Positions 296 through 16,415 of a stretch of 28,329 nucleotides of DNA are shown in pieces. The notes beneath the pieces are model-generated. The model saw only the letters and a program-made list of their open reading frames with translations. It searched no databases and had not been told where the DNA came from. The stretch is from assembly GCF_006345805.1 (NCBI RefSeq), contig NW_021833568.1:1-28329 (forward strand), read 5' to 3'. Position 1 is the first letter of the stretch, and every line of letters starts with the position of its first letter. The DNA comes from Octopus sinensis (taxonomy: Eukaryota). The translations under genes and the position numbers were made by a program.

Positions 296-666
296 TATAA
301 AAGGGCTTAGTAAAATAAATTACTTTGCCGCATACTGAACTCATTAGAAATAGCAGCTAAAAAAACTTTTTTAAAAATATTCCAATACTTAAAGAAAACC
401 TCTCTCATATAGTGTTTGCTCAATTCAACTCACGCAAATATGGGGGTAGAGACATTAAAAAATCAAGTGCAAAGGTTATTTAATAACCTTTGCACTTGAT
501 TTTTTAATGTCTCTACCCCCATATTTGCGTGAGTTGAATTGAGCAAACACTATATGAGAGAGGTTTTCTTTAAGTATTGGAAATAGTTTTAAAAAGTTTT
601 TTTAGCTGCTATTTCTAATGAGTTCAGTATGCGGCAAAGTAATTTATTTTACTAAGCCCTTTTATA
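296..666. repeat. Near-perfect palindrome with ~185-bp arms and a 1-nt spacer at 481
   Basis: Left arm TATAAAAGGGCTTAG...AAAGGTTATT (296-480) is the reverse complement of 482-666, apart from a few changes in one A/T-run. Confidence 0.95.
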
Positions 667-687
667 ATATATATATATATATATATA

Positions 688-1983
688 CACGAGGGGCGTT
701 CAATAAGTAATGCCCCTGACCCACTTCCCATAGCAGTAGAGCAACGAAACTTGGCACAGTTATTAGTCTTTTTCTATATAGGAACAACCCAGAGTTACGC
801 ATTTCTCCCATTATTTGATGCAGCTTTGAATACCGTTTTTGTAGAAGACCCCAACTTGGTCCTCCAACCACGATGTGACTTCAGAAATCAAGGCTGCATC
901 ATCTGGGAAACACTTTCCTTTCAATAACAACTTCATGGCTGGGAAGAGGTGAAAATCAGAGGGTGCAAGGTCAGGAGAGTAAAGGGAATGGGGGATGAAT
1001 TCATAGCCGCACGCCTGTGCTTCTGATCTGGCGACACGCGAGTTGTGGATCGGAGCGTTGTCCTGCAGGAGGAGGATGACTTTGCTGATCTTTCCCCGCC
1101 TCTTGATTTTGATAGCTTCTCTTAATTTCCTCAAAAGTGAAGCATAATAGACTCCTGTAATTGTGGCACCCTTTGCCAGGAAATCTGTCATCATTACTCC
1201 GTCCTGGTCCCAGAAGACTGTGAGCATGACCTTGCCAGCGGAGGGCTGCACCCTTGCCTTCTTTGGAGGAGGAGAGTCACGGTGCTTCCACTGCATTGAC
1301 TGGGCTTTGGTCTCTGGATCATAGTGATGGACCCAGGTTTCATCTTGTGTAATCAGTCTTTTGAAAAATGTTGACTCATCTTCTTGGCACATCTCTAAAT
1401 TCATCCTCGAGGAATCGACGCGTTCTTGCTTCTGGAAAGGTGTGAGCAGCCTGAGAATCCATCTGGCAGACACCTTTTGCATATGCAAATGGTCATGAAT
1501 GATAGTTTCCTCAGACCCGGTGCTAATCTTGACCTCATGCGCTATTTGGCGAATAGTTATGCGTCGATCTTCCAAAATGGCAGCCTCAACTTGACGGACA
1601 GATGCCTTATCAATGGCAGAAGGGGGCGACCAGATCTGGGAGCTGTTTCCACAAAGTGCCAACCATGTTTGAATTCACGATGCCAGCATTTTACAGGTTC
1701 ATATGATGGGGCATCATCAACATAAGTTACTTTCATTTCATCAAAAGTACCCCGTGGTGTGCGTCCTTTCAAATACAAAAACCGGATCACTGCTCGACAC
1801 GCAACAGGCTCCATTTCCCACTTGACTCAGTTCAAATACCTGTAAATCAGAAAACACAAATAGTTCAGAGCTGTAATTTGCCACTTAATCTATAGAGATA
1901 TAAATAATTGCACAGGCAAAATTTTAGCTAGATCAAACAACTGCAAGTGGGTCAGAGGTATTACTTATTGAACGCCCCTCGTA
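688..1983 (-). mobile_element. Full-length mariner (Tc1/mariner, DD34D) transposon, 1296 bp
   Basis: 39-bp TIRs at 688-726 (CACGAGGGGCGTTCAATAAGTAAT...) and 1945-1983 with 3 mismatches, TA on both sides (686-687, 1984-1985), internal transposase. Confidence 0.97.
763..1814 (-). pseudogene. Mariner transposase with one frameshift and one premature stop
   Basis: ORF 1557..1814 gives the HTH N-terminus (MEPVACRAVIRFL). A frameshift near 1620-1640 leads into ORF 811..1662 with TQDETW, QDNAPIH and YSPDLAPSDFHLF (34 residues between the 2nd and 3rd Asp). After the stop at 811 the frame continues WEKCVTLGCSYIEKD* to 763. Confidence 0.95.
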
Positions 1984-2205
<222 letters not shown>

Positions 2206-2530
2206 TAAAGGCTAAAGACCCCCTTCGGTCATGAATGAGCATGAGATTGCACTTAGAAAGTTCCCCTTGGAGGCATAAATCCGAGCAAGGCTGTTTATGG
2301 AAGATCAGAAGCCGCCCATGCATACTGGTCCCTCCCCTCCACGCCACCGATGTTATCCAAGGGAAAGGCAAAGAGGGCTGATACAGCTTGGAAGCAGTGA
2401 GGGGTCACAACTCATTTCTATCGATTAGTGAACTGGAGTAACGTGAGATAAAGTGTTTTGCCCAAGAACACAACACACAGCTCGGACCAGGATTCGAACT
2501 CACAACCTCATGATTGTGATTCCAATGCTC
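2206..2530 (-). mobile_element. tRNA-derived SINE
   Basis: Reverse-strand B-box (GTTCGAATCC) near 2490-2500 and a GTTGTGTTCTTGGGCAAAACACTTT core; an opposite-orientation homolog lies at 12205-12475. Confidence 0.8.
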
Positions 2531-2534
2531 ACAC

Positions 2535-2997
2535 ACAAGAGTCAGCTGGAAGGTTCATTAGCTTATCAGTAAATCTAATGGAATGTGATCAAATGAGTTT
2601 TATTTTTCAACCTTCTCCCCCTTATGGTCCACACACATCTTCCATCAGTGTTGTGGTATTTGGGACCCATTGATGAACAAGCTTTCTTCCTGCTGCTCCA
2701 AAATGTCATCAGCAGCAGACATGTCGTCGTCATCACTGCGATAATGCTTCCCAGCCAGATGTTGCTTTTTGGGGTTTAGTTTTTCATATTTGGAAACAAA
2801 TGACAGTCAGGGGCCAAATCAGAGGAACAGGGAAGCTGGTCAACCACTTCAAAGCCACAGTCATATACAATAGCCATTGGAACCAAGGACTGACTTGTGT
2901 ACTGGGGCATTGTCCTGGCGAAATATGACCCCTTTTGGCAGGTTGCCTGGCCGTTTGGTCTTGATATCTTTTCGTAACCGCCTCAGCATGTTAGCAC
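2535..2997 (-). mobile_element. Degenerate mariner 3' fragment (same family as 8697-9925)
   Basis: Minus translation pieces KGVIFRQDNAPVHKS and SDLAPDCHLFPNMK; DNA similar to 8700-9080. Confidence 0.8.
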
Positions 2998-3351
2998 ATG
3001 TGATTCAGTCAACCCTGCATGAAACCATAAAATAATGTCTTATAAAATCAGAGAGAAGGTGAAATAATTCATTCTTGGAACAATTTAGTCCCAAAATAAA
3101 TGATGCTGTAAATAAGAGCGCTTTAATACTTGGTTAAAATCCACTTTGGATACAGAAATTGGCTGGGTTGCATTGGTCCAGGGGTAGAACGCTTGTGTAA
3201 TTTACAGGAGATGTTGGTTCGAGTTATACGGGAAGCGTTCAGCTTTATCTATTGAGAGGGTTTTTAACCTAATATTTAGCCCCTATTATGTATAGCTTTA
3301 TTGACTACAAGTTCTACAATACACAACCATATAAAAATATTCTTTTCTTCT

Positions 3352-3515
3352 CTAGGAACAAAGCCGGAAATTTTGGAGGAGGGGAAGTCGATTAGATCGA
3401 CTCCAGTACGCAACTGGTAATTAATTTATCGACCCCGAAAGGATGAAAAGCAAAGTCGACCTCGGTGGAATTTGAACTCAGAACGTAAAGACAGACGAAA
3501 TACCGCAAAGCATTT
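3352..3515 (-). mobile_element. SINE of a family typical of Octopus
   Basis: GTCGATTAGATCGACTCCAGTACGCAACTGG...TCGACCCCGAAAGGATGAAAAGCAAAGTCGACCTCGGTGGAATTTGAACTCAGAACG, recognised from memory as a high-copy octopus SINE. Confidence 0.75.
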
Positions 3516-3532
3516 AATTCAAACGTGAATTA

Positions 3533-3612
3533 AAGGACGCAACGCGTTGCCTGGAATCGAACTGACAACCATACGATCGTGAGTCGAATGCCCTAACCAC
3601 TCAGCCACCCAC
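3533..3612 (-). mobile_element. tRNA-like SINE head
   Basis: Minus strand GTGGCTGAGTGGTTAGGG (A box) ... GTTCGATTCC (B box); no complete cloverleaf. Confidence 0.7.
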
Positions 3613-3613
3613 C

Positions 3614-4023
3614 TTCAAGGTATTGACCTATCATCGTCGTGTGACAATCATAGTTGTCAACGAGAAGTCAGCTCCCCTCACAAATACATATACTTTTTCC
3701 AGTATCGATTGACACTGATATTGAAAAAGTGAAATCAAACAATGATAAATCTCAGAGCGAGTTATAAACAGTAGCGGCAACACATCGTGACGTATATTTT
3801 CCATTTGAATATGGCTAACCCCTAAGGGTGGATGCTACTGTAGTTTGTAGCCCCAGGAAGACACCTCCTCCAGCTGGCTATAGACACACTTTCCGTGCCC
3901 TATCAGTATTTGCAAAGGGAAGTCATCCTTCCCGTCTTCAACTTATGATACACACGGACTCGAGTTTCAAGGTATTGACCTATCATCGGCGTGTGACAAT
4001 CACAGTTGTAGACGAGAAGTCAG
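3614..4023. repeat. Two 58-bp direct repeats (3614-3671, 3966-4023), period 352 bp
   Basis: TTCAAGGTATTGACCTATCATCG(T/G)CGTGTGACAATCA(T/C)AGTTGT..ACGAGAAGTCAG occurs twice with 4 mismatches. Confidence 0.9.
3951..3995 (-). ncRNA. Minimal type I hammerhead ribozyme-like motif (U4C core variant)
   Basis: Minus strand CACACG-CCGATGA-T-AGGT caat ACCT-T-GAAAC-tcga-GTC-CGTGTG: 6-bp stem I, 4-bp stem II, short stem III with palindromic ACTCGAGT, GUC cleavage triplet. Confidence 0.7.
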
Positions 4024-4229
4024 TTAATTACAGGATGCGATATTCAAGAAAGAATAATGTGTGGGGTTGTCAGGAAGAGGAGATTAGGTATAGAGGCCCT
4101 TAGAACATGGAAAGGAAACTGCATAAACAAATGAAAAAATCTAAAATTCTTTGAAATACTTTCACCACAATTTACAACACAGGAATATTAAACATAGTAA
4201 ACAAGAAACCATAGAAGTTACCCTTTTCC

Positions 4230-4565
<336 letters not shown>

Positions 4566-5389
4566 CTCATCTCTTTTATGAGGTGTTAAGGGAAAAAATC
4601 TATTCTATAATTTTTTTCTCTCTCTTTTCTCTTACTTTTCCTCTCAAATCCCAGTCAATATATTTTTCTTGCTTTTGTTTTTATATTTTGTTCCTTACAT
4701 ACACTTCTGCTGCTGTATTTCTGTCCAGTGTTACCTTTGTTTAGCAACACTTCCATAAATTTATCAAACTTTAATCATGACACAGTCTTATCTTCTTGAC
4801 ATTCCAGTCAATAATGTTCAGAAATTTGGCTAAATATATTATTTCAGAGCAAATGTTTCACAGGAATTCTTCCACAGATTTGTAAAAACGATGTTATACA
4901 TGTTTTGTATATTTTCGTTTAGTCTTTAAAACATGGTAGACATTGATGATGCTTCTTCTGTCATCTGATGTTTTGAAATTATAAAGAAACAGCAGTGTAA
5001 AATGTGGAGGCTACTTAAAAAATACAGATTTATTTCTACTGAGATAAACTGTAGAAACAAACATTTACCTTAACAACTGAGCTGGATGCCAACAGCTCCA
5101 TAAAGAAATGCCAATCTCTCAAAGTAGATGGGAGTGGGACACCCAAGAAGATATGGGAGAGTTTCAGGTGATATGATAAAGACAAAGGTACCTGGCACCC
5201 AGCTGTACCCAAGAAAATCTGTACTCCACAGCAGAAATATTCAGACTCATCCGTCTGGTGGCAAAAAACACCTGTGACCTTTCTTCATAAAAGCAGATGT
5301 GCAGTGCCATGTTAAAGTGGCACCACATTAAAGCAACTCTTGGTGGCACATAAAATTGCCTGTGCAGTGCCACATAAAAGCAACCTGTG

Positions 5390-5545
5390 AACTGTGAGGT
5401 GGTTGGCACGAGGAAGGGCATTTAGCTCTCGGAACCATAAAAATTCACACTGGAGTGTGCTGCAGCTCCCCAGCTTGCCAGCCCTGCTCAAACCATCGAA
5501 TCGCTTCCAGTATAGACAACATAGGTCGAAAGATGACGATGAACT
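5390..5545 (+). mobile_element. Degenerate interspersed repeat with an RTE-type 3' end
   Basis: GGTTGGCACGAGGAAGGGCAT motif ending in a decayed (GAT)n tail; related pieces at about 12625-12760 (+) and 24765-24900 (-). Confidence 0.5.
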
Positions 5546-12959: not shown

Positions 12960-14080
12960 TTAGCAATTGACATTTAATGCATGTGAGTGCTTGATGCAGC
13001 TTCCCTCGTCTGCACCTCCTGCAACGAAGTTGGTTCATCTGGGACGCCTGACAAGAAGAGGTCCAGCATTATTTTAAAGACACCTGCATCCACCCCATGT
13101 AGGTGTCTCAGGGCCATCGGGACAATATTGAAGAGCTGTGGATCTCTAAAGCCCAGGTTACTGCAATATCTTGTCCTACATCTTGATGGCAAATTTGGAG
13201 TCCTTGGCACTATGCAGTGGCGCCCAGTTCTAATATTTGTATAACTCTCGGTGCCAAAATTTGGGACAAGATCTTCTAGGATCTTCCAGATGTATATTAT
13301 GGCATATCTTTCCCGCCTACGCTCTAAGGAATAGAGTATGAATCTCTTGAGTCTTTCCCAATAGCTTATATGCTGCATAGAGGCTATCTTCTTCGTGTTG
13401 CTTCGTTGGATTGCCTCAAGTTCTGCGATTAATTTGGCACTGGTTGGTGACCATAACTGAGAGCAATAGTCAATGTGGTTTAGGACAAGTGTCCTCCAGA
13501 AAACCATGATGGTTTCCTGGTCTCTTATTCTAAAATTTCTAAGAATCCATCCGGTCAGCCGCCTACATTTCATTGACAATTTAGTAACATGCACATGAAA
13601 GGTTGCATCATTACTCATGTAAATGGCCAGGTCTCGCACTGATTGTGCCTCTGGGATTGCAATCCCTCCAGGTCCAGTGTATTTATTGAGTATTGCATTT
13701 AGTTTTGCATGCTGATAGCATAAAGCTTGAAACTTTTCAGCATTGAACTGCATGCTATTCTTTTCAGCCCACTTGTATATTTCATCCAGCTCACAGTGCA
13801 GGTGCATAGCGTCTCCCGGTTTCTGTATTACCTGTGAAACTTTAGTATCATCTGCATAACTTGTGATCGTGGGACTCTGTGTGACTGAGAGCATGTCTGA
13901 GAGGGCCATTATGAACAGTAGTGGTCCCAAAATAGTGCCATTCTCCCAATTTTCCAACCATGCCAAAATGACGCATATTGTGACATATCATTCCATGATC
14001 AAATTTTATCAACGGCCTTTGCAACGTCGAGATATAACACTTCCACATTTGAGTGGTTGAGCAGCTGTTTCAGCAAGCAG
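12960..14080 (-). mobile_element. 5'-truncated CR1/L2-group LINE (RT C-terminal half), internally deleted
   Basis: LYLDVAKAVDK, GTILGPLLF, YADDTK, DYCSQLWSP, YSLERRRER. The segment between GKLGEW and GTILGP (which would include SGVPQG) is missing. Confidence 0.92.
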
Positions 14081-14302
14081 TATTATAAGAATGTATATAT
14101 ATATATATATACATTCTTACAATACTGGTTGCTGAATGTATACATTATTACAACACTATGACTGGAGTTGCTGCTCGCATTGCCTCCCATCGGATTAAAA
14201 AGTGTATACAGCTCATTTGAGCACTACTATTCCAGTCTGTTATATATTTTGAGCGTTGTTATCACTAACGATCTCAAGATATAACTTTATATTTTGTAAT
14301 AT

Positions 14303-14368
<66 letters not shown>

Positions 14369-14426
14369 CCATATACATACAATAGAGAGATGTTTTTGTT
14401 TCACTTTTAACACGTAATACTGAAAT

Positions 14427-14747
14427 AGTGGAGAAGATATGATACTGCTGTGGACTCGCTCTAGGCAAGAGGTTAAACATTTTTTTGCCCATGATACTAC
14501 ATGGACCCTAAGTAAGGCATGTGTAAAATTTGAATGAAATTGGTTCTGTAGTTCTCAAGTTTTAGGGAATCAGAGTGGAGAAGATATGATATTGCTATGG
14601 GCTCGCCCTAGGCAAAAAGTTAAAATTTGTTTGCTGATGACACTCCCCGGACCCTAAGTAAGGCATGTGGGAAATTTGAATGAAATCGGTTGCGTAGTTA
14701 TCAAGTTTTAGGGAAACACACAGACAGACAGACACGCATCCTTAGTG

Positions 14748-14750
<3 letters not shown>
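14427..14750. repeat. Two tandem 147-bp units followed by (CAGA)n; probable non-autonomous Helitron-like element
   Basis: AGTGGAGAAGATATGATA... starts at 14427 and 14574; the end ...AAATTTGAATGAAATCGGTTGCGTAGTT...ACAGACAGACAC...TTATATATA resembles Lep1-type Helitron derivatives. Confidence 0.7.
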
Positions 14751-14785
<35 letters not shown>

Positions 14786-14790
<5 letters not shown>

Positions 14791-16415
14791 TTAGATAAAA
14801 CTTAGATATGTTTCGACCAGAGATTGGTCCAGGCCATGTCTAACTTAATAGCACCACCTGATAGGATTATTCGAATCCTGTTTAAGTCAAGTTTTGTTCA
14901 AGTAGTGAGTTCTTGTTGGGTGAGTTGTATCCAGTTTTGTTCAAGTAGTGAGTTCTTGTTGGGTGAGTTGTATCCAATTATGGGTGGCTTGTCTGGTATT
15001 CTTTGAAGGAATCTATCCAGACTCTGTTTGAAGTTGATGGGATCCTTTTCCTCTTTGATCTCCCTCGGGACAATGTTAAATAGGGCAGGGCCTGTTGAGG
15101 AAAAGAAATTATGTTGCAGTGTACATGTATGTTGTGATCTTGAATTTGGCAGGGGACGTATAGCCGTGGTCCAAGTCTCGGATGAACCTTGAAGCTAATG
15201 TTTAGGTCGTTTGGGCAAAGTTGGCGGTATATTTTCCACATCGTACAAATGATGTACCGCTCACGGCGACGCTGGAGGGAGTAAAGTTTCAAGGCTTTAA
15301 GGCGATCCCAATAGTCGAGAGCAGCCATGCCTTCAATTTGTTTAGTGAGAGCCCTCTGGGGTGACTCAATTCTGGAGATGTTTTGTCTTGTGTGAGGAGA
15401 CCACAGTGGGCAGCAGTATTCAAGGTGTGGCCGTACAAAGGATGAAAAAAGTGGTATGATGACACCTTGTTCTCTGGACCGGAAAGTTCTTAAGATCCAG
15501 GAACTCATCCTACGAGCTGTATCGACCTTCTTGTTGATGTGTGCACTCCAACTGAGATCGTCATCAACAATTACACCCAGGTCTCTGATATTGTTAGAGG
15601 CTGTGAGCGGTTCCCCTGAAGGAAGAGAGTATGGTTGTTTTAGTGAGGAATTTCTTCCAAAATGCATCAGCTCAAATTTTCCCTCATTCAGTTGCATTTT
15701 GTTTCTGTCTGCCCATTGACTCACAGCATATAGGTCAGACTGGAGTTGAGTTCGGTCTGCTTCTTCATTGACGATTTGCTGGAGCTTAGTGTCATCAGCG
15801 AATATTTTCACTTTGCAGTGATGTACGACACTGGAAAGGTCGTTTACATAAATTATGAAGAGTAGCGGACCCAAAACAGTTCCCTGGGGAACACCGCTGG
15901 TGACTTTTGCTGGGTTTGAGTGGACTCCATCAACTACAACATGTTGTGTTCTATTCGCTAGGAAATACTGAATCCAGTGTAGAACTTTTCCACGGATTCC
16001 AACATTTGCCAATTTTGAGAGTAGGATTTTATGGTCTACCCTGTCGAACGCTTTACTGAAGTCAAGGTATATGACGTCAGAGTTCGAACCTGTTCCCAAG
16101 GCTTTGAGTACATCTTCAATGTGGTGTAAGAGCTGTGTTAGACAGTCCCTGCCACAGCGAAAGCCATGTTGATTTGAATTTAGGAGTTTGTGGGTCTCCA
16201 GGAAGTCAGCTATCCTTGATCTTAACACTCTTTCAAACACTTTAATGATGTGGGAGGTGAGTGAGATTGGGCGATAGTTGACTGCGAGGGATCTGTTTCC
16301 CTGTTTGAAAACCGGGATGACCGACTGGGATAGAAACTTATTCGGTATATAACCTGCGTCTAACGAGTTTCTCCAAAGGTTGGTCAGAGGGACTGCAAGT
16401 TGATATCTACATTCC
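14786..16415 (-). mobile_element. Young 5'-truncated CR1/L2-group LINE (RT domain to 3' end)
   Basis: Frame open from about 16415 (QLAVPL...NYRPISLTS) through YLDFSKAFD, SGVPQGTVLGPLLF and FADDTK. One frameshift near 15165, a 3' hairpin and an (ATCTAAGTTTT)2 tail; (TA)n on both sides. Confidence 0.95.

Follow-up and report, generated by a model that had tools for sequence, protein, structure and literature searches.

The window, a 28,329-nt stretch of Octopus sinensis contig NW_021833568.1, carries an insertion of a 352-nt repeat with a hammerhead ribozyme motif, which lies between a SINE head and a broken zinc-finger array. The features discussed below are as follows.

3614..4025, minus strand: retrozyme insertion of 412 nt, or 1.17 units of the 352-nt repeat, with its 5' end at 4025
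3951..3995, minus strand: type I hammerhead with U4C and U10.1·U11.1, predicted cut 3957/3956 (sequence; Rfam RF00163 alignment)
3995-3990, minus strand: 5' strand of stem I, CACACG
3989-3983, minus strand: core C3 C4 G5 A6 U7 G8 A9 (CCGAUGA)
3982, minus strand: U10.1, then AGG
3978-3973, minus strand: stem II loop UCAAUA, then CCU
3969, minus strand: U11.1
3968-3966, minus strand: G12 A13 A14, then A15.1 and C
3963-3960, minus strand: palindromic stem III loop UCGA
3959-3957, minus strand: G, U16.1 and C17 (GUC, an NUH cleavage triplet)
3956-3951, minus strand: 3' strand of stem I, CGUGUG
3939..4009, minus strand: extended helix I with an internal loop (UGU opposite U), closing the hammerhead (folds; compensatory pairs)
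3764..3840, minus strand: predicted four-way junction of three hairpins on a closing stem, containing site A (folds; compensatory pairs)
3779..3790, mostly 3784, minus strand: site A, the preferred 3' end of family insertions (85 of 192 3' ends)
3733..3748, mostly 3737-3741, minus strand: site B, the second preferred 3' end (75 of 192)
3614..3643, minus strand: second hammerhead, with C3 replaced by A, ending after G12 A13 A14 and without a cleavage site (sequence; direct repeat)
3533..3617, minus strand: tRNA-like SINE head, from an abundant SINE (1,116 candidates, 40 scored)
4218..4556, minus strand: broken C2H2 zinc-finger array (84-nt repeats; translation with internal stops)

Read from the sequence, minus 3995-3951 is a complete type I hammerhead, with helices I, II, and III in order around the core. 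Stem I, the core, the GAAAC-UCGA-GUC segment, and the cut between 3957 and 3956 all lie where the original prediction had placed them. Stem II is also present, but the AGGU/ACCU pairing proposed for it gives way to N-AGG/CCU-N, because the alignment of a sibling copy to Rfam Hammerhead_1 fixes the register at 4 bp with a 6-nt loop. In this register a second core defect, U10.1·U11.1, appears that the prediction had missed. The label of a minimal type I hammerhead has to be dropped. The Rfam alignment gives the canonical metazoan layout of a 6-bp helix I, a 4-bp helix II with a 6-nt loop, and a 2-bp helix III with a palindromic loop, and the window motif does not have the traits of minimal hammerheads (no helix III, a long helix II, and an extra base after A9) as described in PMC4209133. 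The canonical metazoan type I hammerhead (RF00163; PMC4209133) shares the 6-bp helix I, the helix II/III layout, and the GUC triplet. In contrast, the window copy reads CCGAUGA instead of the CUGANGA box and has U·U instead of the G10.1-C11.1 pair, so that U4C and U10.1·U11.1 occur together, and older relatives have C10.1·A11.1. The alignment of the sibling covers the full 45-position model at 32.2 bits (E 1.2e-6), just short of the gathering score of 34. The window copy itself reaches 17.8 bits (E 0.07) when a 181-nt stretch is searched, and it was missed by an Rfam scan of the whole window with hits accepted up to E 1. In the genome, 351 sites match a 34-nt core pattern exactly and none matches its reversed control; this difference and the end-to-end alignment of the sibling argue that the motif is not a chance occurrence. 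Self-cleavage by the window copy is doubtful, and the ribozyme of its subfamily is predicted to be weak.

The second motif, expected 352 nt away with A at C3 and an end after GAA, is present in a 58-nt direct repeat (3614-3671 and 3966-4023, 352 nt apart, 93% identity). With one complete but doubly variant hammerhead and the second cut site missing, the window copy would be unable to release a monomer alone. The insertion also has no normal 3' end: sites A and B are internal, and the rest of the unit is absent from the window. At this side the SINE head, in which ARAGORN detected no tRNA gene, overlaps the retrozyme by a 4-nt microhomology (3614-3617). When the junction was compared with a paralog (L239) and two SINE copies (L240 and L241), the paralogous stretch was found to have the same SINE adjoining a CA/TA tract, with the retrozyme absent. 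Because of this stretch and the 4-nt overlap, the 3' end of the window copy was likely lost via a microhomology-mediated deletion into the neighboring SINE. Insertion of the SINE into the unit was ruled out, given the absence of the remainder of the unit and the microhomology at the junction.

A genome-wide family with several cores

The hammerhead unit belongs to a genome-wide family, with 1,342 exact core matches across four core patterns (exact 29-nt patterns, hence lower bounds; reversed controls all 0). The canonical core with U4 and G10.1-C11.1 (CUGACGA) is the commonest, with 675 matches. The CUGANGA box is found there and in the subfamilies that have U4 with A-U or U·U at 10.1-11.1 (220 matches). 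The pattern of the window type has 85 matches (by hand count, 45 CCG, 32 CUG, and 8 CCA), and the C·A or C·U pattern has 362, with C4 in 48 of the first 100 listed (hand count). Overall, C4 is present in roughly 220 exact matches, or about one in six of all (hand counts, with part of the list extrapolated). The suggestion that C4 is a natural variant is thus borne out as a trait of lineages, although CCGAUGA is not the consensus that it might have been, the canonical CUGACGA being the commonest. A further core state, G10.1·U11.1, is seen in copies at L127:5948-6272 and in L026. In addition, a tail pattern of the younger subfamilies has 1,333 matches (a lower bound), and a DNA search gave at least 130 matches among the 40 scored of 2,506 candidates. 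A more distant relative was found at a single locus.

The units are both dispersed and tandem, with 347-356 nt between sites. The proposed search for tandem copies accordingly recovered both arrangements, including an array of 7.2 x 350 nt, and with more than 1,300 matches in units of about 352 nt the idea of one copy of a non-coding, hammerhead-bearing retroelement family holds. No ORF of at least 100 aa was found over the unit, and no RT/GIY-YIG ORF was found in or beside it. The search for an adjacent GIY-YIG/RT ORF was thus negative for the window unit, which argues that the element is a retrozyme rather than the pLTR remnant of a full element. Across lineages that differ by about 20% overall, G5, A6, G8, A9, GAAA, stem I, and the palindrome are fixed, and stem II shows compensatory change.

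The monomer is strongly self-paired (folding z -5.15), and 95% of cells pair in a consensus fold of 13 monomers from six subfamilies. Both sides change in 10 of 96 pairs, compared with 5.0 in shuffles and 1-4 in slid controls, a count that is inflated by relatedness and by a structure derived from the same sequences. The covariation that had been asked for in the stems is seen as A-U/G-C exchange in stem II and as changes in the extended helix I, again with the structure taken from the same alignment. The predicted four-way junction is a candidate protein-binding structure in this model. The stem III palindrome can form an 8-bp duplex (-10.7 kcal/mol), which fits the need of a double hammerhead.

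Insertion ends and Penelope-type mobility

The anatomy of insertions was examined in 130 cases, of which 42 came from BLAST-top or hand-picked loci and the remainder were taken in list order. Apart from the ends at sites A and B, 32 of the 192 element 3' ends lie elsewhere. The two fixed 3' ends are 43-47 nt apart, and the stretch from A to B corresponds to a Penelope-type tail. Site A is the putative start of reverse transcription. The flank is TA-rich at 117 of 160 A/B ends, compared with 251 of 5,670 background 20-mers, indicating (TA)n targets. Target-site duplications are mostly unreadable in such TA tracts, with a few AT-rich candidates of 10-14 nt (L013, L039, and L072). Two inverted arms with their 3' ends outward are found in 62 insertions, of which 43 are A+B, one is A+A, none is B+B, and 18 have an end outside A/B. 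Among those with both ends at A/B, 43 of 44 use one of each (p 2e-12).

Penelope-like elements (PLEs) have an inverted 5'-truncated arm, microsatellite targets, and a tail of 30-40 bp that is often at one end only (PMC8557442). For a lizard PLE, cleavage and extension take place on both strands, with two internal RNA start sites bounding the tail (PMC11167929). The A/B ends, the TA flanks, and the A+B pairing of the octopus unit fit these start sites, both-strand priming, and the tail of the lizard element, as well as PLE anatomy in general (PMC11167929; PMC8557442). In all, the octopus insertions have the tail, the two internal 3' ends, the inverted arm, and the microsatellite target of a non-autonomous PLE. 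Like PLEs (PMC8557442; PMC11167929), they combine two internal 3' sites, a one-end tail, an inverted 5'-truncated arm, and (TA)n targets, but the unit has no RT/GIY-YIG ORF. A further difference is that the octopus arms use different sites in 43/44 insertions, whereas in the lizard PLE in vitro the start site is alike for both strands (PMC11167929). Based on this anatomy, mobilization of the unit by a Penelope-like protein in trans is likely.

The genome does contain intact ORFs that combine RT and GIY-YIG (775-883 aa), in elements that likewise terminate in TA tracts. Among 32 loci (150 of 5,029 candidates scored), no autonomous PLE that shares sequence with the unit was found; BLAST and local alignment against shuffles gave no shared segment above chance. 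The loci L121-L130 hold a young and abundant Penelope-like family whose elements have a 781-aa RT+GIY-YIG ORF preceded by an ORF of 479 aa and terminate in TA tracts; no hammerhead was found in the family's own 3' repeat. At L127 a retrozyme shares a microsatellite with a 5'-truncated PLE. About 110 nt of microsatellite separate the two, and the retrozyme was taken as an independent insertion rather than as a part of the PLE. Three other hammerheads near PLE fragments were considered as partners of the unit and rejected, as they belong to other repeat families. Hammerhead repeats of other families at L109:742-1245, L121:583 and 6518, and L104:2620 have a long stem II and a palindromic stem III and lie in TA tracts. 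The L109 repeat is a fold-back whose arms each carry a hammerhead and whose ends are unequal.

Taken together, these findings indicate with a probability of about 0.8 that the window holds a decayed 352-nt non-coding hammerhead repeat of the animal non-LTR retrozyme kind, likely inserted by a trans-acting Penelope-like RT/GIY-YIG protein, and that the ribozyme of its subfamily would be weak. Animal non-LTR retrozymes (PMC7229834; bioRxiv 10.64898/2026.07.22.740005) likewise have a non-coding tandem unit of about 350 nt with one type I hammerhead each, strong self-pairing, and autonomous PLEs in the same genomes. The octopus family differs from them in having several mobile subfamilies with non-canonical cores and insertions that are mostly shorter than two units and often inverted; it is known here from DNA copies, and a parent pLTR was not found for it among the 32 PLE loci. 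Mussel retrozymes of 350-390 nt form circles (PMC7229834, Cervera & de la Peña 2020). Retrozymes have also been proposed to be non-autonomous PLEs, in a study in which one of nine frog dimers cleaves (Li, Clavereau & Pollet 2026, bioRxiv 10.64898/2026.07.22.740005). That study kept complete cores only and would therefore miss the subfamily of the window.

Possible loss and regain of the canonical core

A tree was built from 103 copies over 205 columns, with the core columns excluded; each locus that contributed a copy did so once, with a complete tail and stem I. It was rooted on seven older relatives; 47 of its 99 inner branches are unsupported, and one row (L079) is mis-cut and long. The tree is a ladder, with C·A and U4 at the base, followed by a C4 grade (C·A, C·U, and U·U). 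Three U4 groups lie within this grade, namely the canonical G-C group (100/98), a U·U group (99/98), and a group that passes from U·U to A-U (91/91). Inclusion of the core left the branching order unchanged, and a single C4 clade was rejected (p-AU 0.00024, for a group defined after the core-included tree). Mean pairwise tail distance falls in tree order from 0.119 (n=17; C·A, U4) through intermediate values of 0.093 (n=7), 0.058 (n=13), 0.037-0.055 (n=16, 9, and 9), and 0.042 (n=12) to 0.024 (n=26; canonical), with the window-type distance lowered by BLAST-top loci. The canonical-core subfamily is both the youngest and the largest. A Watson-Crick pair at 10.1-11.1 was gained in two lineages. 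C4 lies within a CpG, which makes the C-to-U return mutationally easy. Sporadic CpG decay as the sole source of the U4 copies was ruled out, as these copies form supported clades. These patterns suggest that the textbook core was regained later, after spread with damaged cores, an order that is moderately supported, although recombination between subfamilies could mimic reversion.

The subfamilies also differ in their arrays. Among the listed matches (hand counts), tandem pairs of exact cores are found at 16 of 59 canonical sites, compared with 2 of 73 of the window type (p 5e-5), 5 of 86 with U4 and A-U or U·U (p 5e-4), and 1 of about 96 with C·A or C·U (p 6e-7). In samples taken in list order, where exact matching was not used, arms of at least 600 nt are found in 7 of 31 canonical copies and 0 of 93 others. 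Array frequency is confounded with age and with detection by exact matching. Few arrays are found in the A-U subfamily, although its age is close to that of the canonical subfamily. The longest array of the window type (L009:576-3205; G000:C2, about 197.248-197.251 Mb) has 7.2 units and an inverted arm, and G5A, which should abolish core function, is present in every unit; thus, long arrays are possible without a good core. When copies were sampled by their tail only, 96 of 103 passes extended past the cut site by over 5 nt on its upstream side, which indicates that templates were circular or uncut and that cleaved linear monomers do not serve as the main template. Private variants are shared between the units of an insertion in 9 of 39 tandem insertions and in 4 of 32 inverted ones, compared with 8 of 230 control pairs, giving weak support to one template molecule per insertion. 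Contigs from four runs (four studies; RNA status guessed) cover the unit, and both C4 and U4 alleles are present. In each run one contig with canonical-subfamily letters crosses the unit junction, for which a circle, a tandem transcript, and DNA are indistinguishable.

Several explanations may account for these patterns. In the favored one, the 352-nt unit would be transcribed, and a Penelope-like protein would nick both strands of a TA tract, with one cDNA starting from site A and its counterpart from site B to give tail-out inverted arms. Copying without cut RNA would have allowed the C·A, C·U, U·U, and U4C lineages to keep spreading, mostly as short copies. Lineages back at U4 and at a paired 10.1-11.1, above all G-C, would likely self-cut as dimers via the ACUCGAGU palindrome and circularize, and would thereby yield more and longer tandem insertions. 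The window copy would have lost its 3' end, likely by the deletion into the SINE described above. A bolder reading, held tentatively and with the odds somewhat against it, is that catalysis was lost and then repeatedly regained within this single lineage. It would have spread for much of its history with a crippled core, by priming from uncut RNA alone, and would then have regained U4 at least three times and a paired 10.1-11.1 twice, with the return to the canonical core switching it to circular templates and leading to its largest, array-forming burst.

It is unlikely, but conceivable, that all cores are active enough in vivo, with loop contacts, dimers, or the PLE protein rescuing U4C and the mismatches at 10.1-11.1. 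Every subfamily would then pass through cleavage and circles, and the core changes would be near-neutral drift. U4C and U10.1·U11.1 are each natural but weaker variants (PMC3088659). The former is less active in vitro yet supports viroid infectivity, and the latter is the best-tolerated mismatch (PMC3088659), while a PLE hammerhead was protein-assisted (PMC11167929). The fixed core residues (G5, A6, G8, A9, and GAAA), stem I, and palindrome of the octopus family, with compensatory change in stem II, would also be expected. However, mismatched-core subfamilies yield few tandem insertions, and of the 22 positions in the core and stem II, 4 change on the branch that leads to the canonical subfamily, compared with a branch length of 0.035 outside the core. 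No assays of the double variant or of C·A were found in the papers examined.

A ribozyme that is irrelevant to spread is a rather unlikely alternative. The unit would be a PLE-mobilized passenger copied from uncut multimers, its arrays would derive from master arrays or arise at the DNA level, and the canonical core would result from CpG decay, chance, or recombination with another family. The hammerhead of the lizard PLE is indeed dispensable for insertion in vitro, where its mutants have no effect (PMC11167929), and frog retrozyme dimers were uncleaved in 8/9 cases (bioRxiv 10.64898/2026.07.22.740005). In the octopus family, 5' ends show no peak at the cleavage site (7 seen versus 5.6 expected; 5 versus 2.4 in a 6-nt window, p 0.10). 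Three lineages nevertheless returned to U4, whereas the mirror CpG change G5A, seen at 3 of 73 sites, founded no dispersed lineage. The gain of Watson-Crick pairing at 10.1-11.1 in two lineages is also at odds with irrelevance, as are the private variants within insertions, which are as expected from one template.

Cutting of weak-core RNAs in trans by a good-core partner within a double hammerhead, with the palindrome and stem I common to the subfamilies, is improbable. In the dimer architecture each core acts on the cleavage site of its partner (PMC4209133), the palindrome duplex (-10.7 kcal/mol) and the substrate strand kept in all subfamilies would permit this, and the G5A array at L009 would be explained. 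On the other hand, the tree suggests that the canonical partner was absent while the C·A and C4 lineages spread.

The kind of element is already known; what is new is the family history, with its moderately supported order and what it may mean for catalysis. The same two changes are known singly, U4C from a viroid and U10.1·U11.1 as a natural variant (PMC3088659, Perreault et al. 2011). In the octopus family they occur together, have become fixed in a retroelement lineage that amplifies, and seem to have been reversed at a later stage. In the consulted literature on octopus or cephalopod hammerheads, retrozymes, and core variants, neither this family nor core loss and regain was found, although a prior mention is possible. 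The family bears on the need for hammerheads in Penelope and retrozyme mobility and on the circle origin of tandem arrays, a field in which circles have been proposed and found in mussel, coral, and salamander, whereas PLE insertion in vitro has no need for cleavage. Six natural cores can be compared in it on a common background, for which the relative order of ages is available along with copy numbers and array lengths. If the loss-and-regain reading is true, these cores would form a natural allelic series showing that Penelope-type mobility can do without self-cleavage even though selection favors it, and a Penelope dimer would prime the two DNA strands from distinct RNA sites that act as a pair. 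How PLE proteins prime both strands is in any case constrained quantitatively by the nearly strict A+B pairing of the arms.

It is highly improbable that the window copy has been kept to regulate the neighboring zinc-finger gene through a ribozyme in the gene's 3' region, as the copy's shared strand and position about 190 nt downstream of the last zinc-finger stop are set against internal stops in the zinc-finger frame, ordinary divergence of the copy, two core defects, and a second core that varies between near-identical duplicates. The locus is an ordinary dead, decayed copy, with the end of the zinc-finger array about 190 nt upstream of it on the same strand. The duplicates are two inverted copies of window 663-5438 with 98% identity (G000:C5:115.650-115.670 Mb), whose second core differs at C3. 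The window contig may be a third copy of this C5 region or an alternative haplotype. Elsewhere in the window, positions 289-673 form a near-perfect fold-back with 192-nt arms (96% complementary, 1-nt spacer) flanked by TA tracts, which could be another tail-out twin insertion or a MITE. A transposase remnant at 667-2004 (ORF 811-1674, minus strand) lies inside 60-nt inverted repeats and is presumably Mariner-like. Finally, two non-LTR reverse transcriptase frames of 337 and 478 aa are located at 12974-16414 on the minus strand.
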